Virus record (IMG/VR): IMGVR_UViG_3300045988_012380
Coordinates: 1-29,198 of that record
DNA: 29,198 bases
Source of the DNA: a virus
Reading direction: 5' to 3' (one strand)
How positions within the stretch are numbered: the first letter of the stretch is position 1; each line of letters starts with the position of its first letter. The position numbers and the translations under genes were made by a program. The notes beneath the pieces are model-generated. The model searched no databases and was not told the DNA's origin. It worked only from the letters and a program-made list of their open reading frames with translations. Below are positions 4,935 through 26,276 of this stretch, in pieces.

Positions 4935-5356
4935 GCTTTAAGCTCCTTTCTAGGCGTTTCTTTCTCTACCCTTGTATTTATATTACTTCCGTTTTTTAGA
5001 CCTAATATCATAGCTTCTAGCTTGTCTAAGCGTTGTTCTATGTTGTCTTTCTTTGGTTCTGTCTCTTCTTGGAATCTGTATTTCTTGAAACTGCCGTCTA
5101 ATGATTTCATGTAGAACACTGAATCATTTCTATCTAGCATAATACTAGGCAAACCATTCACCATCATATTCCTTGCTTCTTGTTCATTATTGACCCATTT
5201 TCCATTAAAATCATTTAATCCCATGTTAGGCGTGATTTGGTTGTTAATATTAATAGGTGGAATATTTGCTAGTTGTTGAATGTTCTGTAATTGCGATTCA
5301 ATCATCTGCTTTTGATTCATTAAATTATTGATTCTGTCATTAATTGGATTATACAT
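4931..5356 (-). CDS. Gln/Asn-rich hypothetical protein (141 aa)
   Basis: The track ORF is 4931..5365 with a GTG start. The ATG at 5356 lies 6 nt after AGAGGTG and is preferred. Confidence 0.5.
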   Translation of the reverse strand: MYNPINDRINNLMNQKQMIESQLQNIQQLANIPPININNQITPNMGLNDFNGKWVNNEQEARNMMVNGLPSIMLDRNDSVFYMKSLDGSFKKYRFQEETEPKKDNIEQRLDKLEAMILGLKNGSNINTRVEKETPRKELKA

Positions 5357-5432
5357 TTTGCTCACCTCTTTACACTCCTAATTATATTCATGTGCAATCT
5401 CAATTTGTTTCCACATTAATGTCAAATAAATG

Positions 5433-5460: not shown

Positions 5461-5725
5461 AATTATCATCTAAAAACGTTTCTTTTTCACTGCTTTTTCT
5501 TGGTGGTAGGACTGCGCTATACTTCTCTACTGTATCATACTTATTCTTAATCTTTTTGATAATTCGATTCACACTAGAAACACTCATGTTTAATCTATCG
5601 GCTTGTTCTCTAACTGTCCATCCGTATATTCTTGTTCTTAAAATCATTTCTTCATCTTTAGTTAATAAAGCTAGATTAATAAATTCTTCAAGAATAATCT
5701 TATTCCAAGGTACTTGATTCGTCAT
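5459..5725 (-). CDS. Small sigma-70 region-4-like / HTH transcription regulator
   Basis: The track ORF is 5459..5746 with a TTG start. ATG 5725 is preferred, but the start is uncertain. The segment LTKDEEMILRTRIYGWTVREQADRLNMSVSSVNRIIKKIKNK looks like a sigma region 4 / LuxR-type HTH. The gene overlaps the 3' end of the holin gene. Confidence 0.5.
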   Translation of the reverse strand: MTNQVPWNKIILEEFINLALLTKDEEMILRTRIYGWTVREQADRLNMSVSSVNRIIKKIKNKYDTVEKYSAVLPPRKSSEKETFLDDN

Positions 5726-6206
5726 TGTCTTGTTCTTCGTTAACAAGTTTATCTGCTACTTCCAAACCTTTAGTTAATGCTTTTGGTACTTTGTAGCCAC
5801 ATTGTAATAAATTCTCCATAACGCTACGAGATTCATTAATACATAGCGAAGCTAACACAAACCAACCTAGCAATGTAGATACATGGAAATTAAGTCCTAG
5901 AATTTCTCCAACTTCTACCAAAAAAGCACTGAACGTGAACGCAACGACAATCATAATCCAATAGCCTAGCTTTTTAAGCACTCCAATCCATCCTTTATTA
6001 CTATTGATTTTATGAGCAATAGCCGACTTCATGCACCCCGTAATGTAGTCAACTACATTCATAAATAAGAAGAATGCGAATAAATACCAATGTTCACCTA
6101 ATACGTATGTTAATACGGCAACGGCTACTCCACCCATTGCATTCATCTTGTCTAGAAAATACATACTTCTTGTTATTTGTTTAAATCCTCCATTGTTCTT
6201 TTCTAT
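5700..6206 (-). CDS. Holin, TcdE/phage_holin_4_1-like
   Basis: The track ORF is 5700..6215. It has about 3-4 TM segments and sits directly after the tail genes. GTG 6215 abuts the SD with no spacer. ATA 6206-6204 lies 8 nt after AAGGAG. A second SD (GGAGG) followed by 10 nt and ATA occurs at 6176-6174. Confidence 0.75.
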   Translation of the reverse strand: MEKNNGGFKQITRSMYFLDKMNAMGGVAVAVLTYVLGEHWYLFAFFLFMNVVDYITGCMKSAIAHKINSNKGWIGVLKKLGYWIMIVVAFTFSAFLVEVGEILGLNFHVSTLLGWFVLASLCINESRSVMENLLQCGYKVPKALTKGLEVADKLVNEEQDNDESSTLE

Positions 6207-7230: not shown

Positions 7231-8100
7231 CTATAAACCTAAATACCTTTCATTGTAGTAAACGGTGCAAGATAAATTTGTATCTCCTGTATCTGCTCCA
7301 TATCCGATAGTGTTCTGACCTACATCAATGACCAAATTATTAAATGATGAGGTTCTATCTACTTTATTAATGCAATTTACACCATTCTTACGAATCTTAA
7401 TAGGTTTTGAGACTAAATCAATTTCTAATTTGTCGCCTTTATGCAATGTATCAATTACTCTTACATATTTGTCTTTATTAAATAGCTTTGGATTCTCAAC
7501 ATCTCCATACGCTTCAATAATTGCTCTACAATATGTTTCAGTATCGCCTTTATTCTCAATCTTAACTTCTCTAGCGAAGCTAAATGTTCCGAATTCAACA
7601 CCTTTAGAAGTAATCTCTACATTGAATTGCAAACCACCTTCGATTTGTGCAATATTCTTTGCATAATCATTATATGAAAGCAATAAAGGTTGCGTACATA
7701 AAATTGTGAAGTTTAGCTCTAAATCTCTGTAAATATTGCTTGTAGGAAGGCTATACGCATACAACCTTCCTTGGCAATATTTCTTTTCTCCCATGTACTC
7801 AACAATTACATCAAATAAATGAGAATAGTTGAAGAAACATCTAAGCACTTCTCTTTCATGTGATTTCTCTTCTAGTGTACCTTTAAAGATAGCTTTCACG
7901 CTTCTTTCCTTTGTAGGTATTCTAACACTCATAACTCTAGCACCATTTCCAAATGCGTTATCTTGAGTTGTGTATGAAGGCTCAATGTAATCAAATCCAT
8001 CTAAACCATCACTAGATGGAATTCTCCATCTTTTGTTGTCGATTTCAAATGTTTCACCATCATCCCTACGAACAATGATTCTAACTTTGTTTAAATCTAT
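7231..8100 (-). CDS. Distal tail protein (Dit)
   Basis: The track ORF is 7231..7932. The frame is open and protein-like for 56 more codons upstream with no ATG, GTG or TTG. ATA 8100-8098 lies 9 nt after GGAGG (8114-8110) and overlaps the TMP stop as ATAG. Confidence 0.7.
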   Translation of the reverse strand: MDLNKVRIIVRRDDGETFEIDNKRWRIPSSDGLDGFDYIEPSYTTQDNAFGNGARVMSVRIPTKERSVKAIFKGTLEEKSHEREVLRCFFNYSHLFDVIVEYMGEKKYCQGRLYAYSLPTSNIYRDLELNFTILCTQPLLLSYNDYAKNIAQIEGGLQFNVEITSKGVEFGTFSFAREVKIENKGDTETYCRAIIEAYGDVENPKLFNKDKYVRVIDTLHKGDKLEIDLVSKPIKIRKNGVNCINKVDRTSSFNNLVIDVGQNTIGYGADTGDTNLSCTVYYNERYLGL

Positions 8101-10676
8101 TGAATTGCACCTCCATATCCATATCTTGCTTGTATTCTTAACATCCTAGCGATTTCGTCCGGACTAGATGTTTTAGAATAGAAGTTAATTGTCTGTCCAT
8201 TGTTATTTGTGGTTACACTAGGCATGATTTGAACCATATCTTTAGCTACGGCACGAACCCATGCTTTATTTCTTTCTAATGGTACGACGGCTTCTGCTCC
8301 ATTACCTTCTAACAAACCAATTTGTCCACGCTTCAATACACCACCACGTTCTAGTCTTGGAATCCTTCCAATGTGAACTCCGGGAATCTTATTGATGATA
8401 CTGATAGCACCATTAATACCACCGATAACACCATTAACCATTCCTTTTACACTTCCAACCAATGAACTAACTGCTCCTTCAATTCCACTGAATACACCAC
8501 CTACAAACCCTCTCAGACCGCTCCATGCATTCTGTATTCCTTGTAAAACATTTGAAATCTTACTTCCTACCTTGTCCATCACGCCTTGAACCTTTGACCA
8601 AATGCCGTTGAATACATCTGTAACTGTAGATTTGATATTATTGAAATATTTATTAATATCATCAATAACACCTTTTACCTTATCTCCTACTTTACCCATG
8701 ACTTCTTGAATCTTGCTCCAAATCTTGTTGATAATATCAGAGATTGACTTAAATAAATTTGTTACAAATTCAATGATTGCAGTTACTACTTCACTGACTT
8801 TGCTCCAAATATTCGTTGCTACCGTTAATATTACAGACCAAATATTCGCTACAATTGTAGATATGATTTCTACAATAGGCATAATAAATCCTAGTATAGT
8901 TGCAATAGCCGTTCCAACATATGTGACTACCATACTTATAAACGAAATAATCCCACTTACAACACTTCCTACAACTGTTAGAATAGATGTTATTACAGGA
9001 ATCATTTCAGTTACCACTGAGATTATCTTCTGAATAATTGCTAGAATCGGTGGTCCTACTACTGTTAGAATCTTTTGTGCTTGATTCACAATATTTTGAA
9101 TAACTTCAATAATCTTGCTTAATATATCTTTTGCGATAGGTTCAAGTGCAACTTTCATTTGTTCAATCGCACCTTTTACCTTATCAAAAGCAGGAGCTAA
9201 CACATCAGAAACTTGGCTTGTCAATTTTGTAATTCCACTTGTATCAATCTTACTTAATACACTTGAAATTACATCACCAACTTTAGCAAACCCTTGTTGA
9301 ATACCTTGTATTGCTACTGTAATCAATCCAATGATACCTGCAAGAATAGGGGTAATAAGTTCGCCTATTGGAGTAAATGAATCAAGAAACGCACGTCCTA
9401 AACCACTTAAAGCGTTTTTTAAGCCACCGTTTGCAATTTCTTTTACTTTATCCATTGCACCTTCTACATCTTTATATTTATTCCCTACTGTTGTTAAGGA
9501 CTGAATGAATCCGGCGTTGAAATCTTCTCCCATTGTACCGAAAGCCGTTGCCGTTTTATTCAACTTTTCTTGTTGATTTGTAGTTCTTGAAATATCTTCT
9601 ACAATCGCATTCACAACATCTTTCTGAGTTTTTCTTCCTTCTTGCCATGCCTTGAATACATCTTGCGTCTTTGTATCGAAACTATCTAAAGCTCCTTCGA
9701 TATTTCCATCAACTAACCTTGTGGTAACTTCATTGATTGCGTCGTTAACTTTATCAAGGTTATAAGCTCCACCATCTAAACCATTCTGCATTAATTGGAA
9801 ATATTCATCTGCCGAATATCCTGCTTGTTTGAATTTACCTGCGTATTCTGAAATGTTATCGCCTAATTCATCCGACTTATTCAAGCCATTCTGAGCACCT
9901 GTAGCCATAAGGTCAAACGCTTCTTTAGAAGTAATTCCGAACTGCTTCATTAATTGTTGAGCACCTCTAAGAGTTTCGTTCTCGTCCATGCCGAATGTGT
10001 CTCTTAATGTCAATAAATCCTCAGTAACATTCTTTAGGTCAACATCACTTATGCCTTGCATTTGTTGTTTAACACGTGCCATCATATCGGCAACATCTGA
10101 AATATCTTCGCCAAAATTATTAGACCAAACATCACGAGCAATGTTTTTAAATTTGCTCATTTCATTACTTGAAGCACCTGTCTGAGCTTGAAATTTAGCC
10201 ATAGCGTCATCTAATTCAGTAGCTTGGTTAACACCGGTCTTAATTGCCAGTGCCATTCCACCAACTGCTCCTGCTACGGCAGTGACACCAACGACACCTC
10301 CAACGCCTAAGCCTGTTAATGTTTCTGTGATTGCAGTAGCTTCCGGACTAATGTTCTGAATCTTTCCTAATAGTCCATCAAATCCACCTTGAATTGACTC
10401 TAATGCACTACTTCCAATTTGCTTAAATACATCAAATTTTGAACCTGTTTCTTGCGTTTCTGTTTGTGTATTCTTTTGCTCTTCGTTTAAATCTTTAAGT
10501 TTTTCTTTAATTTTTGGCGGTGCTTTTGAACCATCAGAACCTAACTTGTCGATTGCTTTTGAAGTGTCTTTGATAGCATTTGTTGCTTCACTTGATACAA
10601 CTTTTACCGATTTAATACCATTCTCTAGACCACTTGTGTCTATCTTTGTATCAAACTTTAATGTTCCATCTGATAT
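8097..10676 (-). CDS. Tail tape measure protein
   Basis: The track ORF is 8097..10256. Another 140 in-frame codons upstream (KFDTKIDTSGLENGIKS.., Gly-rich TM-like GVGGVVGVTAVAGAVGG) contain no ATG, GTG or TTG. I checked this triplet by triplet. The first sense codon after the in-frame TGA is ATA 10676-10674, 11 nt after GGAGG (10692-10688). Confidence 0.85.
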   Translation of the reverse strand: MSDGTLKFDTKIDTSGLENGIKSVKVVSSEATNAIKDTSKAIDKLGSDGSKAPPKIKEKLKDLNEEQKNTQTETQETGSKFDVFKQIGSSALESIQGGFDGLLGKIQNISPEATAITETLTGLGVGGVVGVTAVAGAVGGMALAIKTGVNQATELDDAMAKFQAQTGASSNEMSKFKNIARDVWSNNFGEDISDVADMMARVKQQMQGISDVDLKNVTEDLLTLRDTFGMDENETLRGAQQLMKQFGITSKEAFDLMATGAQNGLNKSDELGDNISEYAGKFKQAGYSADEYFQLMQNGLDGGAYNLDKVNDAINEVTTRLVDGNIEGALDSFDTKTQDVFKAWQEGRKTQKDVVNAIVEDISRTTNQQEKLNKTATAFGTMGEDFNAGFIQSLTTVGNKYKDVEGAMDKVKEIANGGLKNALSGLGRAFLDSFTPIGELITPILAGIIGLITVAIQGIQQGFAKVGDVISSVLSKIDTSGITKLTSQVSDVLAPAFDKVKGAIEQMKVALEPIAKDILSKIIEVIQNIVNQAQKILTVVGPPILAIIQKIISVVTEMIPVITSILTVVGSVVSGIISFISMVVTYVGTAIATILGFIMPIVEIISTIVANIWSVILTVATNIWSKVSEVVTAIIEFVTNLFKSISDIINKIWSKIQEVMGKVGDKVKGVIDDINKYFNNIKSTVTDVFNGIWSKVQGVMDKVGSKISNVLQGIQNAWSGLRGFVGGVFSGIEGAVSSLVGSVKGMVNGVIGGINGAISIINKIPGVHIGRIPRLERGGVLKRGQIGLLEGNGAEAVVPLERNKAWVRAVAKDMVQIMPSVTTNNNGQTINFYSKTSSPDEIARMLRIQARYGYGGAIQ

Positions 10677-16619: not shown

Positions 16620-18137
16620 CTAATCCCAATATCCTAACGCTACACCTCTACTATATATACAATTTGCCATTGCGATATAGCCATAGTCATTCAAGTGCAC
16701 ACCGTCTGTTTTTAATTGTGGTGGTATTGCTCCTATTGACATAGCTTCATTATCTTCTTGTGTAGGTGTTAGATTACTATCTAATAATCCATATTTAGAT
16801 ATATATTCTCTTGCGTTCACAAAATGGTTAGAAAACCTTGACGCTAATATGATTTCTTCGACATTTTTATCATTTGCATTACCTGTTGGTATTCCGACAA
16901 CAATATATCTTTCAGAACCATTATGCTCAACCATCCTTTGAATGATATCAGCTAACGCTTCCGGTCTGCTCGTTTGTGCTGCCCAACCGTTTTGCCCTAT
17001 GCAAATAATAGCCACATGACCTACTCCTTCTCCCTCTGCGAAAGCAATAGTTGGTCTGCTATATTCTTTGCCTAAAAGTGAACCATCTGCACAAACTAAA
17101 TTCAAAGAACCGCCGTCACCTCTTCTAAACATCCACTTATCTCTTCCGTTTAGATAAACATTACCATTCCCATGATATTTGCCCGAATACGACATTGTTT
17201 CTAATGACGCACCATTAATACTTTTTATTGTTACTTTATTATAGTCACTAGCATTTGCACCCGCTGTAAACGGAAGCACAATAGCCCCCATGCCACCTTG
17301 CCGGAAAGCTATTACTTCTGCGGTTTCAGAACCTTGCCCGTAGTTATTAACAACAAATTGTTCTCCAATTAACTCCTGGAGTTTTTTTGGATACGGATAA
17401 TTTGTTGCACCTGCACCTTGCGTTAATGAATCCCCCCAACAATCTATAATTGTATAATTCGTTGATGCTCGTTCAATTTTTCCTTTCACATCATTTGACA
17501 AATTATCCCATGTTATCGCTTCTGGTTTTATTTCGATTTTTGATATAAAGTTTGTTTGTTCTTCTGATTCAACTAATACTTTTATATCGTCACTGGTCTG
17601 AGCAACAAATAATTTTATGCACTGGCAATTAAATGTATTTGTTTCAGGTATTTGATTATTGAAATATAATTGCACACCAACTTTTCCGCTTTTTTCAGCT
17701 ATAAAATTATAACATATTGAGAATTCACTATTATTTTTTATAGCTCTTAAAGGAGCACTCTTCCAACCGCCTGCATCCACAGCATATATCATTCTTGCAT
17801 ATACATAACCTTGAACCCAGTTTATTAAATTTGTGATTTTAAATTTCACATAGATGAAATATGGTTTTCCTTCTTCGACATCAATATAATTTTCATTTAC
17901 ATAAACAGTACCATTACCATTATTAATATTCACATCTTGAATATTCGTATTGATATTAAACAAATTCGTGTATTTTGTTCTTATATCATTTAAATCTTCC
18001 TTCAGTTGACCAACTCCTAGTGCTTCATCTAACTGTTGAACAGTACCTTTTTTAGTTCCGCTTGTATCTTCTATAATCATTATATCTTCTTTTTTTATGC
18101 CGTTTGAACTAGGCAATTCTTCTATCTTTAATCCTAT
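16620..18137 (-). CDS. Fibre/spike-type protein with a C-terminal SGNH (GDSL) esterase domain
   Basis: The track ORF is 16620..18116 with a TTG start. It has a GDSL block (IIDCWGDSLTQGAG) and a C-terminal DGVHLN (DxxH) block. ATA 18137-18135 lies 7 nt after GGAGG (18149-18145) and is the second codon after the upstream TAG. Confidence 0.7.
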   Translation of the reverse strand: MGLKIEELPSSNGIKKEDIMIIEDTSGTKKGTVQQLDEALGVGQLKEDLNDIRTKYTNLFNINTNIQDVNINNGNGTVYVNENYIDVEEGKPYFIYVKFKITNLINWVQGYVYARMIYAVDAGGWKSAPLRAIKNNSEFSICYNFIAEKSGKVGVQLYFNNQIPETNTFNCQCIKLFVAQTSDDIKVLVESEEQTNFISKIEIKPEAITWDNLSNDVKGKIERASTNYTIIDCWGDSLTQGAGATNYPYPKKLQELIGEQFVVNNYGQGSETAEVIAFRQGGMGAIVLPFTAGANASDYNKVTIKSINGASLETMSYSGKYHGNGNVYLNGRDKWMFRRGDGGSLNLVCADGSLLGKEYSRPTIAFAEGEGVGHVAIICIGQNGWAAQTSRPEALADIIQRMVEHNGSERYIVVGIPTGNANDKNVEEIILASRFSNHFVNAREYISKYGLLDSNLTPTQEDNEAMSIGAIPPQLKTDGVHLNDYGYIAMANCIYSRGVALGYWD

Positions 18138-18140
18138 TTG

Positions 18141-19529
18141 CTAACCTCCATAATTGATATTTACTTTAATATCATTTCCATTATTGAAATATATCTTCTT
18201 AACTTTTTTTATAAAGCCGTTATCGTTGTACCATACTTTTGCTTGACTTAATTTTTTTGTATCATGAATTATTTTTGCTAACAGAACATTCCCTTTTTTA
18301 TCTGTTATTTCAAACCCATCCTTATTTAAGATAGCTTCTTGATAATCAATACGATGATATGCTATCTTTGCTTGGTCTGCAGGCGTTACAAATCCCACAC
18401 TTGCATAATCTGAAGAAGTACCAAAATCGTCTACAATTCTAATATAGAATGTATATCTAGTTTCCGGTGCTAAATCATCCACAACTAACTTTGTCTGTGT
18501 TTGTAAATCCTTCCAAATTCTTCCATCATATGAATACTGATAATAATATGATGTTGCTCCTTCTTTAACTTCGAACCCACTCCAAGTAAATGTAGCACCG
18601 AAAGGATTCAAATCTGTATAAGTTACAGTTCCTTTGGTAGGTTTATCCGGTTTATTAGTTTTAAAAACTACTTTTACTGAATCAGAAGGTGTGCTAAAGT
18701 TATCAACGATTCTTACATAATATGTATATTCGGTATTAGGACTTAATCTTGATACTTCAAATCCTGTCCCTTTTGACCTATCTATCCAATTATTATCATC
18801 AGTAGATGATTGATAATAATAATCTGTTGCACCTTCTTGAATGCTAAATCCACTCCATAAAATATAAGCAGATTTATAAGTAATATTAGAAGCTTCTACC
18901 TTTCCTGCTTTTGGCTTGTTTGGTTTCTGAGTCTTTATAAATTTGCTAACAGGATTTTCTAAAAGTACACTTGCATCTCCTCGGTATCTTACATAGCAAT
19001 TTACCTCGTATTCTTTGTTTGGGGTTAATCCCTCAAATTTTCCTTCAGTGCCGATTTTAGAAGTCTTATCCAAAGTTGCTTTAATTGTGTAAAAACTGTA
19101 AGGATTTGATTCCAAAGTAGCTTTATAACTTACAGAATTATAAGTACTGCTTAATTCAATATCTTTGATTTTCGGTATAGATATAGTAGCTGATTCAGTT
19201 TGCGAACCACTTGCAGAAATATTTCCGAAGCTAGTACTAAAATGTATATTTCTAGAATCTTTTCTATTATTCGTCGCAAATGTATATTCTAGCGTTCCAC
19301 TAGCTAATGCCCACGTTCCTGCTCCACCCACATTTATATTTACGCTATGGCTATTATAACCAAAGTTAAGAATGGCTCCATTGTACTGCGTTGAGTTTGC
19401 AGAATAAGCGTGTTGCAAATAAATTGTATATGAAACTTTATGTTTAATATTAGGATATGTTCCTTCTATGTAATTGCTACAATCTACACGAAAGCTAATT
19501 CCATGTATACTTGTATAATAAGTAGCCAT
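18141..19529 (-). CDS. Structural protein with three fibronectin type III-like repeats
   Basis: AGAGGTG is followed by ATG. Residues about 119-201, 202-291 and 292-382 each end with a Y.Y.VR/IRIVD-type FN3 signature. Repeats 2 and 3 are clearly paralogous. Confidence 0.7.
   Translation of the reverse strand: MATYYTSIHGISFRVDCSNYIEGTYPNIKHKVSYTIYLQHAYSANSTQYNGAILNFGYNSHSVNINVGGAGTWALASGTLEYTFATNNRKDSRNIHFSTSFGNISASGSQTESATISIPKIKDIELSSTYNSVSYKATLESNPYSFYTIKATLDKTSKIGTEGKFEGLTPNKEYEVNCYVRYRGDASVLLENPVSKFIKTQKPNKPKAGKVEASNITYKSAYILWSGFSIQEGATDYYYQSSTDDNNWIDRSKGTGFEVSRLSPNTEYTYYVRIVDNFSTPSDSVKVVFKTNKPDKPTKGTVTYTDLNPFGATFTWSGFEVKEGATSYYYQYSYDGRIWKDLQTQTKLVVDDLAPETRYTFYIRIVDDFGTSSDYASVGFVTPADQAKIAYHRIDYQEAILNKDGFEITDKKGNVLLAKIIHDTKKLSQAKVWYNDNGFIKKVKKIYFNNGNDIKVNINYGG
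18384..18926 (-). repeat. Tandem coding repeat of about 270 bp (FN3 units 2 and 3)
   Basis: The peptides KPNKPKAGKV..WSGFSIQEGATDYYYQ..YYVRIVDNFSTPSDSVKVVFKT and NKPDKPTKGTV..WSGFEVKEGATSYYYQ..FYIRIVDDFGTSSDYASVGFVT are clearly paralogous. Confidence 0.7.
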
Positions 19530-23035: not shown

Positions 23036-23373
23036 TTTAATAAATCTGCCAAAGGTGTTAAGTCCTCAATCTCATGTGTCATTGTTTGCTCAACCTTTTC
23101 GGTCTGTCCAAGCATTTGTTTACCTAACCAAATAAGCATGGTCGTATTCCCTTTTGAAGCTTTGTCAAATTGCATACGTCTTAAACTTCTTTTTGAGTGG
23201 CTTATACCTCTTTTATATGTCTGACAAAACTTTTTATTTCTTAATAATGTTCTTACTGAACATCCTAGGAAATCTGCAATTTCTTCTTGAGTACATCCAA
23301 TAGAAGCAAGCTTTTCAACTGCTTCATAATCAATCTTTATTCTTGGACGTCCTCCTGCGTGTTTCTCTGCTAT
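23032..23373 (-). CDS. terS: Terminase small subunit (HTH)
   Basis: The track ORF is 23032..23397. The sequence GGRPRIKIDYEAVEKLASIGCTQEEIADFLGCSVRTL is typical of TerS. ATG 23397 has no SD and overlaps a 49-aa ORF. ATA 23373-23371 lies 7 nt after AGGGGG and 1 nt after that ORF's stop. Confidence 0.75.
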   Translation of the reverse strand: MAEKHAGGRPRIKIDYEAVEKLASIGCTQEEIADFLGCSVRTLLRNKKFCQTYKRGISHSKRSLRRMQFDKASKGNTTMLIWLGKQMLGQTEKVEQTMTHEIEDLTPLADLLK

Positions 23374-23374
23374 T

Positions 23375-23524
23375 TTAATACCCCCTGTAACAATCATATT
23401 GATTCAATTGCTTTTTAAGCCTTTGTAATCTTTTTCTTAAATCTCTTTTTCTGTATTCTGATGTCGTGTTTTGTAGTTCTTCTTCAACGCTTTTCATTTG
23501 GCGTAAATGTTCTTCTCTAGACAT
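23375..23524 (-). CDS. Micro-ORF, 49-aa basic coiled-coil peptide
   Basis: Not in the track. ATG 23524 overlaps the end of the radical-SAM gene. The peptide is MSREEHLRQMKSVEEELQNTTSEYRKRDLRKRLQRLKKQLNQYDCYRGY. Confidence 0.3.
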   Translation of the reverse strand: MSREEHLRQMKSVEEELQNTTSEYRKRDLRKRLQRLKKQLNQYDCYRGY

Positions 23525-24824
23525 GTCTTGCTTCTTCTGTTTCAAGTTCTGTAATCTCCTCTGTTCTTTTTAAGAATGTTACTGAATTATCATATTCATA
23601 AATGATGTCATTATTTTCATCAAATCCTACAGGCTTTAGAACCTTTTCAAAAATCTTATAAGGTGATTGTCCTGCTTTTGGAGAGTTCCATAAATAATGC
23701 AGATAATCTTTCATTGTCATTCCTGCATATTTTGCTCTAGTTTCTGATGTATTCGTATTAAAACCAATTGCTTTGTTACGTTCAAAATCTAAGAAGTACA
23801 TATCCTTTTCAATATCTTTCCAATGTACTCTTCCATGTTTCTTTGCAATTTGTAAAGCTCCACTAAAATTTCCTCTTGAGTAATCCCAATTCTTGTCTAA
23901 TGCGCAACAACAACAATTATTCGAGCATTCTTTAAAGTGTGCGTCTGATACATAGAATCGCATGCCTAATTCATCACATAACTCTTTCATCTTTTGAATG
24001 TATTTAGCCTTTACTTTTCTGTTAAGTCTTAAATATCCACTTCCATTTGAATGTTTTCTATAGAAATCTACAATATCAAATCCTGCACATTCACTAATCA
24101 CATCATAATGCTCCTTAGCTTGTTTAATAGAGCGCATTTCTAAGCAAAAGAACTCTGTAGTAACCGCAGTAGCTCCTGCCTTTTTGGCTTCTCTAATTAA
24201 ATCTAGATAGGTTTTATCTGATACTCCTACAATAAATGGTCGCAACCTTAAAGTTGCACCACCTTTTGATAATTCAGTATATTTTTTCATTGCTTCAAGT
24301 CTTTTTCTTGGACTTGGTACACCTACTTCGATTTTTCTTGCGTCCTCTTCATCTAGTGTGATAATACTAAACTTAACATTCCAATTGTCTGCACCTTTGA
24401 ATAATTCTTGATATTTAGGGTCGTTAAATACCCATGCCGATTTCGTACTAAAACAGATAGGATAGTTAATAGATTTCATATACTTGAGCATTTCATAGGT
24501 TTTACCATATTTCTTTTCATATCCGTCGAATTGGTCTGATAATCCACCATATTGAATAGGGCGTCTGTCTTTAATGTATTTATAGAATTGTGATTTTGTA
24601 TCTTCTCCACTGAAAATCCTTTTGCATTTCTCAACATTGATACATTTCACATCTTTATTAAGATATGCTTCTTTACTTGCACCAATGCCTCTTTGATATT
24701 GGCTAAAACAATAAACACATCCAAATGAGCAGTTGGAATATGTATCAAATGTTACTGGTAATGAGCAATCTGCGATTTCTCCTGTCCATCTTGGTGATTG
24801 ATAAGTCTCACTAATTTTATTCAC
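23517..24824 (-). CDS. Radical SAM protein (possibly SplB/COG1533-like)
   Basis: CxxxCxxC is present at CSFGCVYC near the N-terminus, in a ..Y..C..GC.YCF.. context. An extra Cys cluster occurs at CSNNCCCCALD. GGAGG is followed by 7 nt and GTG. Confidence 0.7.
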   Translation of the reverse strand: MNKISETYQSPRWTGEIADCSLPVTFDTYSNCSFGCVYCFSQYQRGIGASKEAYLNKDVKCINVEKCKRIFSGEDTKSQFYKYIKDRRPIQYGGLSDQFDGYEKKYGKTYEMLKYMKSINYPICFSTKSAWVFNDPKYQELFKGADNWNVKFSIITLDEEDARKIEVGVPSPRKRLEAMKKYTELSKGGATLRLRPFIVGVSDKTYLDLIREAKKAGATAVTTEFFCLEMRSIKQAKEHYDVISECAGFDIVDFYRKHSNGSGYLRLNRKVKAKYIQKMKELCDELGMRFYVSDAHFKECSNNCCCCALDKNWDYSRGNFSGALQIAKKHGRVHWKDIEKDMYFLDFERNKAIGFNTNTSETRAKYAGMTMKDYLHYLWNSPKAGQSPYKIFEKVLKPVGFDENNDIIYEYDNSVTFLKRTEEITELETEEARHV

Positions 24825-25737: not shown

Positions 25738-25764
25738 TTAAAAGAACCGAGACAAATGCTCGGT
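25738..25764 (-). terminator. Rho-independent terminator downstream of the tRNA-like gene
   Basis: Minus-strand hairpin ACCGAG-CATTTGT-CTCGGT (25764-25746) is followed by TCTTTT. Confidence 0.6.
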
Positions 25765-25847: not shown

Positions 25848-25923
25848 TGGTTGCAGGAGAAGGATTTGCACCATTCGACCTTCGGCTAATAAGACCGACG
25901 AGCTACTACTGCTCTATCCTGCT
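25848..25923 (-). tRNA. Initiator-like tRNA with anticodon UAU (non-canonical; Ile-AUA by anticodon)
   Basis: The minus-strand 76-mer is AGCAGGA TA GAGC AGTAGTA GCTC G TCGGT CTTATTA GCCGA AGGTC GAA(T)GG TGCAAAT CCTTC TCCTGCA A CCA. It folds as a cloverleaf. The acceptor stem has 6 bp plus an A1xA72 mismatch. The D stem has 4 bp with A11:U24. The anticodon stem has 5 bp including G29:C41 and G30:C40. The anticodon TAT lies at 25891-25889. The variable loop is AGGTC. The T stem has 5 bp with one bulged T. A73 and an encoded CCA are present. Deviations from canonical form are: no GG in the D loop, G at position 55, U37 and a U31.G39 pair. Confidence 0.6.
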
Positions 25924-25929
25924 AAAACA

Positions 25930-25938
25930 ATTATCGCA
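25930..25938 (-). promoter_or_regulatory. Extended -10-like box TGCGATAAT positioned to start transcription at tRNA nucleotide 1
   Basis: The minus strand reads TGC-GATAAT (25938-25930), then 6 nt (TGTTTT), then A1 of the tRNA at 25923. The -35 is poor. Confidence 0.35.
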
Positions 25939-25940
25939 TG

Positions 25941-25963
25941 AAAAAATGCTCACATTGTGAGCA
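25941..25963 (-). terminator. Rho-independent terminator overlapping the stop of CDS 25950..26276
   Basis: Minus-strand hairpin TGCTCACA-A-TGTGAGCA (25963-25947) is followed by T6. Confidence 0.65.
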
Positions 25964-26276
25964 CTTTCTTTAAATTCTTGTTTATCTTTCTTGGGATTTC
26001 TTCTCGTGCATAACCTACAATATTAGATGTTTTTTCTGCACTGAATCCCTTTATATATCTATACTCAATCATTGTTCGAGTTGTATCATCAAGTTGGCTT
26101 AATTTGTCTTTTACATAATTCATTCTTCTTGCATAATCTGCATGAGCCAAGAATAGCTCGGATTTTAATGGATAAATAGCTTCATCCCTTTGTAGCTCTG
26201 CTATCTTTTGCTCATAATAAGTGTATGATTGGCATTCACATAAGAAGTGTCTCTTAATATCTTCATATGTACTCAT
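25950..26276 (-). CDS. Sigma region-4-like / ArpU-type transcriptional regulator
   Basis: 108 aa. The C-terminal segment MIEYRYIKGFSAEKTSNIVGYAREEIPRKINKNLKKV is HTH-like. Family assignment is tentative. Confidence 0.45.
   Translation of the reverse strand: MSTYEDIKRHFLCECQSYTYYEQKIAELQRDEAIYPLKSELFLAHADYARRMNYVKDKLSQLDDTTRTMIEYRYIKGFSAEKTSNIVGYAREEIPRKINKNLKKVLTM

Follow-up and report, generated by a model that had tools for sequence, protein, structure and literature searches.

To our knowledge, the initiator tRNA is taken to have CAU as its anticodon in each of the three domains of life, and start codons other than AUG are read by this same tRNA through mismatches. Animal mitochondria initiate at AUA by means of a tRNA-Met that carries 5-formylcytidine at position 34 (f5C34), and elongator tRNA-Ile(UAU), whose anticodon is complementary to AUA, exists in Mycoplasma mobile and also in many phages and giant viruses. 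Phages of the crAss-like and Lak groups reportedly recode stop codons with suppressor tRNAs, as Borges and colleagues are said to have described in 2022. In the laboratory, engineered initiators with mutated anticodons initiate at the complementary codon, as i-tRNA(AAC), an initiator tRNA with anticodon AAC, does at GUU (10.1101/2021.05.25.445580). Here we describe a stretch of viral DNA of 29,198 nucleotides (IMG/VR record IMGVR_UViG_3300045988_012380, positions 1 to 29,198; hereafter the window), derived from human gut metagenomes, that contains a 76-nt tRNA gene with the anticodon UAU at positions 25848-25923 of the minus strand (sequence: AGCAGGATAGAGCAGTAGTAGCTCGTCGGTCTTATTAGCCGAAGGTCGAATGGTGCAAATCCTTCTCCTGCAACCA) and a set of genes that open with ATA. 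Our findings suggest that this is probably a functional, phage-encoded initiator-type tRNA(UAU) that reassigns start-codon choice, a reading that we draw from comparative analysis of sequences.

The proposed system resembles each of the described systems in part. As in animal mitochondria, AUA would be a bona fide start codon, though the mitochondria modify their one CAU tRNA whereas the phage has a separate gene for a UAU initiator. In common with stop-codon recoding, a phage tRNA would alter the meaning of a codon, structural and lysis genes are enriched among those affected, and gene callers are broken by it; recoding of stops acts in elongation and termination, however, whereas the system in the window would act on the choice of start at initiation. 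The engineered initiators (i-tRNA(AAC) and amber) likewise join an initiator scaffold and a changed anticodon to a complementary non-AUG start, but they are man-made, charged according to the new anticodon and inefficient, whereas the phage tRNA is natural, is found in dozens of genomes and would serve essential structural genes. Our search of the full-text literature, whose coverage leaves subscription journals mostly outside, returned engineered orthogonal initiators and no natural phage system with a reassigned initiator anticodon.

The gene is recognized as a tRNA. ARAGORN calls it tRNA-Ile(tat) at exactly these coordinates, as the sole tRNA of the window; with the Rfam model RF00005, whose gathering score is 29, it reaches 49.1 bits (E = 8e-8), and it folds as a cloverleaf at minimum free energy. 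The acceptor stem has an A1xA72 mismatch followed by G2:C71, C3:G70, A4:U69, G5:C68, G6:C67 and A7:U66, and the 3' end consists of the discriminator A73 and an encoded CCA. The D stem (G10:C25, A11:U24, G12:C23, C13:G22) closes a 7-nt loop, AGUAGUA, without GG; the anticodon stem of the window allele is U27:A43, C28:G42, G29:C41, G30:C40 and U31.G39, and the loop that it carries (25887-25893) reads C32 U33 U34 A35 U36 U37 A38. The variable region is AGGUC, the T stem has one bulged U and the T loop, UGCAAAU, contains G55. The original prediction, which a model had made from the letters of the window without database searches, described the anticodon loop as CTTATTA and the anticodon as UAU, which can be read directly in the sequence, and named A1xA72, A73, A11:U24, G29:C41, G30:C40, U31.G39, U37, the bulge, G55 and the D loop lacking GG, all of which are present; the ARAGORN and Infernal runs that it proposed are those reported above.

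The body of this molecule is that of a bacterial initiator. We aligned it globally with a reference panel of four initiators and eight elongators, taken from the Listeria chromosomal tRNA cluster together with other initiators, and obtained identities of 81% to the Listeria, 80% to the Staphylococcus, 78% to the Bacteroidota and 77% to the E. coli initiator, as compared to 58% for Listeria tRNA-Ile(GAU), 58% for the Listeria tRNA-Ile2-type CAU gene and 53-66% for other elongators. The likeness to tRNA-fMet that the original prediction had pointed out is therefore real, and the blocks that it named (GAGCAG, GTAGCTCGTCGG, CCGAAGGTCG, CAAATCC and GCAACCA) all occur in the actual E. coli initiator sequence. 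When 5,426 complete E. coli genomes were searched with blastn, only initiator genes were matched, with a median of 4 matches per genome, equal to the count of initiator genes (three in metZWV and one at metY); the top match among those listed was the tRNA-Met triplet between mltA and amiC (metZWV), at 77.9% identity over 75 nt. An unpaired 1:72 position is a determinant for the formylase and an anti-determinant for EF-Tu, and A11:U24, G2:C71 and C3:G70 are secondary formylase determinants established by work in E. coli. All nine distinct alleles from 31 related loci have A1xA72, and this mismatch, G2:C71, C3:G70, A11:U24, A73 and G30:C40 are invariant across the clade. With bacterial tRNA-fMet (E. 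coli metZWV and metY, Firmicutes) the phage tRNA thus shares the unpaired 1:72, A73-CCA, the three secondary determinants, G30:C40 (with G29:C41 in the window allele) and the AGGUC variable region, but it has UAU rather than CAU as its anticodon, U31.G39 rather than G31:C39, U37 rather than A37 and A1 rather than C1, it has G55, a bulged T stem and no G18G19, and it is encoded by a phage and paired with AUA starts. On these comparisons, the scaffold is initiator-like.

These features bear directly on the most conventional alternative, which is that the gene encodes an ordinary elongator supplementing the decoding of internal AUA (Ile) codons in an AT-rich phage, while the ATA starts described below are read inefficiently by the host initiator via a strong Shine-Dalgarno (SD) sequence and have nothing to do with the tRNA. 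The ARAGORN type agrees with such a role, phages are known to carry tRNAs that serve rare codons, AUA and AGG being classic examples, and native AUA starts of S. aureus operate at 10-30% of the AUG level. An elongator tRNA-Ile(UAU) would be expected to have a paired 1:72 position, a purine at position 37 (bearing N6-threonylcarbamoyladenosine, t6A) and an Ile-like body, whereas the window tRNA has A1xA72, U37 and a body with 58% identity to tRNA-Ile as compared to 81% to initiators. The genuine elongator tRNA-Ile(UAU) genes of phages and giant viruses are quite unlike the window tRNA: their 1:72 is paired, their D arm reads TAGCTCAGT...GGTTAGAGC, their T loop is canonical and position 37 is a purine. 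Genes of this ordinary kind, mostly in metagenome-assembled genomes (MAGs) of giant viruses, also made up the more than 120 matches returned by the looser pattern TCGGNCTTATNANCCGAAGG, which was set aside, as was CCGGGTTTATNNNCCGGAGG, a pattern that matched three hairpins, none of them a tRNA.

The genes of the window provide the second line of evidence. Many frames of the coding strand begin with an ATA that lies 0-2 codons past an in-frame stop and 6-11 nt after GGAGG; the first ATG, GTG or TTG of these frames is far internal and lacks an SD. There are 30 GGAGG motifs on this strand, 14 with ATG or GTG at start spacing, 10 with an in-frame ATA that opens a long open reading frame (ORF), one of which (23340) was later rejected, and 6 that are internal or unusable. 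We applied an orphan-SD criterion to all triplets, requiring an SD, a position at most 20 codons after a stop, an ORF of 60 codons or more and the absence of a canonical codon nearby. ATA ranked first, at 6 sites of the window and 52 in 9 loci of the clade, and the runners-up were codons that flank those ATA sites. The proteins that begin at ATA, but not those that begin at the first canonical codon, account for the N-terminal residues aligned by protein family profiles (Table 1). The base preceding the start also differs, being A in 32 of 33 distinct contexts (about 10 genes) for ATA and in 34 of 66 for ATG in the same phages. These observations show that ATA is a genuine start codon in at least six genes, and probably in ten, and about a quarter of the phage genes open in this way. 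The rejected site, an ATA at 23340 in TerS that lies 10 nt downstream of GGAGG, is GTA in one relative (L003), which marks it as an internal codon; TerS starts at ATG 23397. Public automatic annotations of two human gut contigs in ENA (L237 and L238) shorten each of the genes that start with ATA, giving 436 instead of 467 aa for the portal, 272 instead of 289 for the capsid, 719 instead of 859 for the tape measure and 233 instead of 289 for the distal tail protein (Dit). The truncated capsid protein has no Pfam hit, and the false 440-nt gap that standard ORF calls leave before the tape measure gene is explained by its ATA start.

The presence of ATA starts follows the presence of the tRNA across related phages. 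At the start of the capsid gene, compared in 58 IMG/VR loci, all 35 close relatives (92-100% identity; IPNQ/EIALAK...) have ATA, whereas all 23 distant relatives (46-58%; MPNTIALAK..., MANSIAL...) have ATG at the homologous codon. Within the clade the ATA starts are invariant, bar one site that is polymorphic for ATA and ATG (6206), and 14 outgroup loci have essentially no orphan-SD ATA sites. The outgroups, whose tRNA status was judged from 10-kb flanks (the portal-based locus search reached the close clade only), either show no tRNA within the 20 kb covered or, in the nearest group (55% capsid identity), combine an initiator-type tRNA(CAU) with ATG starts. In that group the tRNA(CAU) of L172 (9260-9331; also in L174-L178 and L188) has G1xG72, A73, three G:C pairs and A11:U24 and lies about 670 nt upstream of the ATG-started capsid gene, and phage-borne initiator tRNAs seem to be common among these outgroup phages. 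A skipping-rope RNA (RF02924, 60.6 bits) occurs at 8839-8918 of L172, about 340 nt upstream of its tRNA.

Codon usage in the same phages is difficult to reconcile with an elongator. Internal ATA makes up 0.19-0.20 of Ile codons in the clade and 0.26-0.41 in the outgroups, and is thus lowest in the UAU clade despite its having the lowest GC, a pattern unlike that of a phage whose tRNA supplements a rare codon. In E. coli, reading of AUA by the native initiator amounts to 0.02-3% of that of AUG (10.1101/063800), which makes it plausible that ATA starts need a tRNA of their own. Among the genes with ATA starts is that of the most abundant virion protein, a placement that attenuated initiation does not fit. 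Together with the pairing of other anticodons and start codons described next, which would have to be a coincidence, these points make an ordinary elongator role quite unlikely, and we favor the reading in which the tRNA serves the ATA starts.

We scanned viral contigs for the acceptor and D-arm sequence with any anticodon, and recovered a scaffold family of many CAU members, usually with a C1 mismatch, the UAU clade, a more canonical UAU relative (L298) whose T arm is normal and whose D loop contains GG, and 39 contigs with the anticodon CCU. The CCU tRNAs, found in L241, L292 (9548), L302 (2739), L272 and about 35 other IMG/VR loci, share A1xA72, A29:U41, G30:C40, U31.G39 and U37 with the window type. 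In these phages the top orphan-SD triplet of the coding strand is AGG, with 22 sites, and ATA has 0. Proteins started at AGG match their profiles close to the N-terminus: the tape measure aligns 2-135 to 2-135 and 5-499 to 6-522 (canonical start at residue 20), TerS 4-108 to 3-107 of 110 (canonical start at residue 19), the major tail protein from residue 4 (canonical start at residue 24) and the portal from residue 2 (canonical start at residue 13). The base before AGG starts is A in 11 of 16 cases and before ATG in 13 of 36. As many as 29 of the 39 CCU phages also have a tRNA-Ile(UAU) of the ordinary elongator type, in which 1:72 is paired, the D arm is canonical and position 37 is A. This elongator is not accompanied by ATA starts, which indicates that a decoder of AUA does not by itself bring ATA starts, and that the anticodon on an initiator scaffold does. 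One further case came from scanning for the signature arm (G30 U31 C32 U33 NNN U37 A38 G39 C40) with other anticodons: L359, a phage of 29% GC with a C1xA72 tRNA of anticodon CUU at 5350-5426. Its portal gene (7469-8938) has AAG directly after a stop and 6 nt after AGGTG, and the product aligns with PHROG_533 from residue 6, the first ATG being at residue 26. The signature arm with anticodons not ending in U gave no matches. The start triplet is hence the complement of the anticodon for UAU and ATA, CCU and AGG and, in one gene, CUU and AAG, and U37, which is otherwise very rare, with U31.G39 is common to these three types and not found in the common CAU members of the family. The suggestion of the original prediction that start choice is retargeted to AUA is supported by the SD-led ATA starts, the N-termini of profiles and homologues, the co-occurrence and these sibling anticodons.

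No cultured phage in INPHARED carries an initiator-type tRNA with the anticodon UAU or CCU. The cultured Phaeobacter phage MD18 (L236; MT270409.1, 23779-23851; 149 kb) has an annotated tRNA-Met with 81% identity to the window tRNA, which shares the GCAGGA/TCCTGC acceptor stem and the D arm and has U1:A72 and the G29-G31 pairs. This tRNA possibly belongs to the phage initiator-tRNA family, as a member from a cultured phage whose anticodon is the usual CAU.

The original prediction had cautioned that the gene could be a decayed copy. Such a copy might be a captured host tRNA-fMet or the remnant of an integration site in which C34 has changed to T. The odd features of the molecule (U37, G55, the bulge and the missing GG) would suit a pseudogene, and so would a genome-wide scan for initiator-like arms with TAT, in which 14 bacterial loci were found that are mostly 3' fragments beside an intact tRNA-Met or sporadic degenerate copies. 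The pattern of change in the phages refutes this explanation. Among six related IMG/VR contigs the tRNA varies in 1 of 76 columns, at the bulged base, as compared to 94 of 578 in the flanks. The search of related phages that had been proposed recovered the gene in 31 of 31 related viral loci with enough upstream flank, although these flanks differ by about 10-16%. The 31 loci fall into two alleles of the anticodon stem, separated by three fully compensatory double changes (27:43 U-A to C-G, 28:42 C-G to U-A and 29:41 G-C to A-U), while the acceptor stem, the D arm, G30:C40, U31.G39 and the entire anticodon loop are unchanged. Paired cells reach 99.4%, against 37-57% in slid controls, three pairs vary on both sides, and the covariation score was reached by 0 of 500 shuffles. 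The gene is moreover full length, has an encoded CCA, is framed by terminator-like hairpins and co-occurs with ATA starts. On this evidence, the tRNA is real and under selection, and a decaying pseudogene can be virtually dismissed. The allele of the window is the minority one, so that G29:C41, which the original prediction took as an initiator hallmark, is indeed present here but is not conserved, the clade majority having A29:U41; this majority allele scores 48.8 bits with RF00005 and is missed by ARAGORN.

As to the bacterial TAT loci themselves, none of the 14 has U31.G39 together with U37, and they provided no clue to the host. Six bacterial MAG contigs (L008, L009, L012, L014, L016 and L018) contain 3' fragments of initiator tRNA with C34 changed to T beside or near intact tRNA-Met genes, and these fragments look like integration-site duplicates.

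We propose that the tRNA would act as follows. Lying between the replication and packaging modules, it would be transcribed as a small unit of its own and aminoacylated, most likely with isoleucine, because synthetases that read the anticodon charge anticodon-mutant initiators; methionine is also possible. It would probably be formylated, as the determinants in the acceptor stem (the 1:72 mismatch, G2:C71 and C3:G70) and A11:U24 are intact. The charged tRNA would then enter the P site directly and pair with AUA starts placed at normal spacing behind a strong SD, forming three Watson-Crick pairs that IF3 should accept. By this route the phage would start about a quarter of its genes with AUA, including the portal, major capsid, tape measure, Dit and probably the endolysin, and the host initiator would read these starts only poorly. 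The pay-off may be an initiation channel private to the phage, by which its protein synthesis is controlled or insulated; alternatively, the system may have arisen as a neutral ratchet after a C34-to-U change made ATG-to-ATA mutations tolerable.

Several observations weigh against this mechanism. Any working tRNA would be unusual in having U37, G55, the T-stem bulge and a D loop that lacks GG; the last three, which are absent from the relative L298, were derived within the UAU clade and are nonetheless conserved in the 31 loci. The three consecutive G:C pairs of initiators at 29:41, 30:40 and 31:39 are not found, the window having GC/GC/ug and the clade majority au/GC/ug, U31.G39 has the pyrimidine:purine orientation, and G30:C40 is the only one of these pairs that is universal. 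Initiator function in E. coli, on the other hand, requires no more than G30:C40, or G30 by itself, which is both sufficient and essential, and au/GC/gu initiators occur in nature (PMC5389676). The strict conservation of G30:C40 in the phages matches this experimentally defined minimum. The incomplete initiators of mycoplasmas and alpha-proteobacteria (au/GC/GC, GC/GC/gu and au/GC/gu) likewise keep only G30:C40 strictly, but they retain CAU and a purine:pyrimidine 31:39 pair, unlike the phage tRNA with its U.G and reassigned anticodon (PMC5389676). The native AUA starts of S. aureus, which lie behind extended SDs, reach their substantial level with no special tRNA, and the phage tRNA may therefore boost AUA starts rather than license them. 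At least two convincing ATA starts are found in the early region of one relative (L001; reverse-complement 7867 and 13249), in a replication-organiser-like gene and in a 195-aa gene absent from the window, and a model in which the tRNA is a strict timer or switch for late genes is weakened by them. A phage of 62% GC (L005; IMGVR_UViG_3300043595_000031) that has an initiator-like UAU tRNA shows no ATA-start pattern in the 9.7 kb available. Its tRNA (9633-9709), with G1.U72 and a canonical A37 and situated beside an odd tRNA-like gene, is a different one, and we rejected this phage as a replicate.

Additionally, U34 could read AUG by wobble and the tRNA could be used in elongation, which leads to a dual role in initiation at AUA (perhaps also at AUG) and in elongation at AUA. 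An unmodified U34 can pair with A and G, binding to EF-Tu is compatible with our measurements and the tRNA is the only one in the window, though the 1:72 mismatch, the bulged T stem and the likely formylation would disfavor EF-Tu, judging from the determinants of E. coli tRNA-fMet, and internal ATA is relatively depleted. We regard this dual role as rather unlikely. The altered loop, which differs from the host type at positions 34 and 37, also invites comparison with anti-defense tRNAs: the phage molecule might be a decoy or replacement that evades or soaks up anticodon nucleases aimed at initiators, such as VapC-type toxins, and phage tRNAs with changes in the anticodon loop have been proposed to evade tRNA-targeting defenses (PMC10264068). 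A UAU tRNA cannot efficiently replace tRNA-fMet at AUG unless by wobble, however, and the switch to ATA, AGG and AAG starts that match the anticodons would be left unexplained, and a defense function of this kind is highly improbable. A functional initiator tRNA(UAU) is thus the reading that we carry forward.

The phage of the window has 33% GC, is siphovirus-like and has every gene on the minus strand, in the order SSB, a small regulator, the tRNA, DUF6275, a ParB-like gene, TerS, TerL, portal, head genes, tail genes and lysis genes. Dozens of related contigs exist in IMG/VR, and no near match to the window was found among cultured phages. Terminator-like hairpins upstream and downstream appear to frame the tRNA as its own transcription unit. 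The upstream hairpin overlaps the stop of the preceding ORF and would insulate the tRNA from the upstream operon. Between it and the tRNA lies a putative extended -10 element that ends 6 nt before A1, so that transcription could begin at or next to the mature 5' end; a scan for two-hexamer promoters did not return this element, because it has no -35. The next gene, DUF6275, starts at ATG 25721 behind GGAGG. Between the ParB-like gene and TerS there is a 435-aa ORF with a GTG start (23517-24824, minus strand) that matches Radical_SAM below the Pfam threshold (22 bits, cut-off 29.5); no connection of this ORF with tRNA modification emerged. Two large ORFs among the head genes (16620-19529, minus strand), one with an fn3 domain and one GDSL-lipase-like, form a mosaic insert that is present in only 2 of about 70 related locus matches. 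Coordinates of the remaining features are collected in Table 1.

Table 1. Elements around the tRNA gene and genes of the window that start, or probably start, with ATA. Numbers of codons are counted from the ATA, and residues from the protein that begins there.
Feature	Position	Strand	Start codon or motif	Nearest canonical start	Basis, homologues and conservation
Upstream terminator-like hairpin	25941-25963	minus	hairpin 25947-25963, then TTTTTT		Terminator scan and sequence; overlaps stop of upstream ORF 25950-26276
Putative extended -10	25930-25938	minus	TGcGATAAT (TGtAATAAT in relatives)		Suggested by sequence and conservation
Anticodon UAU (positions 34-36)	25889-25891	minus	complement of AUA		Sequence; unchanged in 31/31 related loci
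Downstream terminator-like hairpin	25746-25764	minus	hairpin and T-run		Terminator scan
Portal, 467 aa	20291-21694	minus	ATA 21694; GGAGG 6 nt upstream; 1 codon after stop	TTG 21601, 31 codons in (residue 32), without SD	PHROG_533 aligns from residue 22; ATA in 70/70 locus matches; outgroup ATG within 6 codons
Head protein, 253 aa	19533-20294	minus	ATA 20294; GGAGG 10 nt upstream	GTG 20195, 33 codons in (residue 34)	Six PHROG profiles, residues 2-7 against profile positions 5-8; ATA invariant
GDSL-lipase-like or tail-like protein, 505 aa	16620-18137	minus	probable ATA 18137; GGAGG 7 nt upstream; 1 codon after stop	TTG 7 codons downstream	Mosaic region, only 2 related loci
Major capsid, 289 aa	13800-14669	minus	ATA 14669; GGAGG 9 nt upstream; 1 codon after stop	GTG 14618, 17 codons in (residue 18)	PHROG_422 aligns 3-288 to 3-294 of 297
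Head protein PHROG_556, 120 aa	12557-12919	minus	probable ATA 12919; GGAGG 10 nt upstream; directly after stop of preceding gene	ATG 2 codons downstream (start ambiguous)	Outgroup homologues begin within 1 codon
PHROG_3099 structural-module gene, 167 aa	11638-12141	minus	ATA 12141; AGGAG 8 nt upstream	ATG 16 codons in (residue 17)	Profile from residue 11; ATA invariant, though an in-frame 3-nt indel follows it in L006
Tape measure, 859 aa	8097-10676	minus	ATA 10676; GGAGG 11 nt upstream; first codon after stop	ATG 10256, 140 codons in (residue 141)	PHROG_58 from residue 7; ATA in 58/58 matches
Dit (distal tail protein), 289 aa	7231-8100	minus	ATA 8100; GGAGG 9 nt upstream	ATG 7932, 56 codons in (residue 57)	PHROG_33 from residue 25; ATA in 28/28 matches
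Holin-family gene (PF05105)	5700-6206	minus	probable ATA 6206; AGGAG 8 nt upstream		Polymorphic: ATA in 24 related loci, ATG in 3
Endolysin, 486 aa	1630-3090	minus	probable ATA 3090; GGAGG 9 nt upstream	alternative ATG 3144, without SD	PHROG_8781 aligns 5-139 to 11-143; PHROG_7887 aligns 8-102 to 12-104

A bolder extension of the proposed mechanism, which we put forward tentatively and consider possible at best, is that some gut phages use a private orthogonal start code, in which UAU, CCU and CUU initiators would act at AUA, AGG and AAG. The pair U37:A(-1) would then add a fourth base to the start signal (A-AUA, A-AGG and A-AAG), and, while speculative, such a pair is compatible with the bias toward A at position -1. 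Proteins made in this way would carry formyl-Ile, formyl-Arg or formyl-Lys at their N-termini, and expression of the capsid, portal, tape measure and lysis genes would depend on the phage tRNA. A code of this kind may be used for timing, for insulation from host shut-off or defense, or for silence in the wrong cell.

The practical consequences concern the annotation of such phages, as the affected genes (portal, capsid, tape measure and Dit) are cut short or overlooked by standard gene callers, and tRNA finders mislabel tRNAs of this type as tRNA-Ile or tRNA-Arg, or miss them. The tRNAs may also represent parts for orthogonal translation initiation that evolution has already tested, and they open questions as to how IF3 and the P site judge the fit of codon and anticodon, how few of the three G:C pairs are needed, and which N-terminal residues formyltransferase and deformylase accept. 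If our reading is true, this would be the first natural reassignment of a start codon, and the counterpart at initiation of the stop-codon recoding of gut phages.

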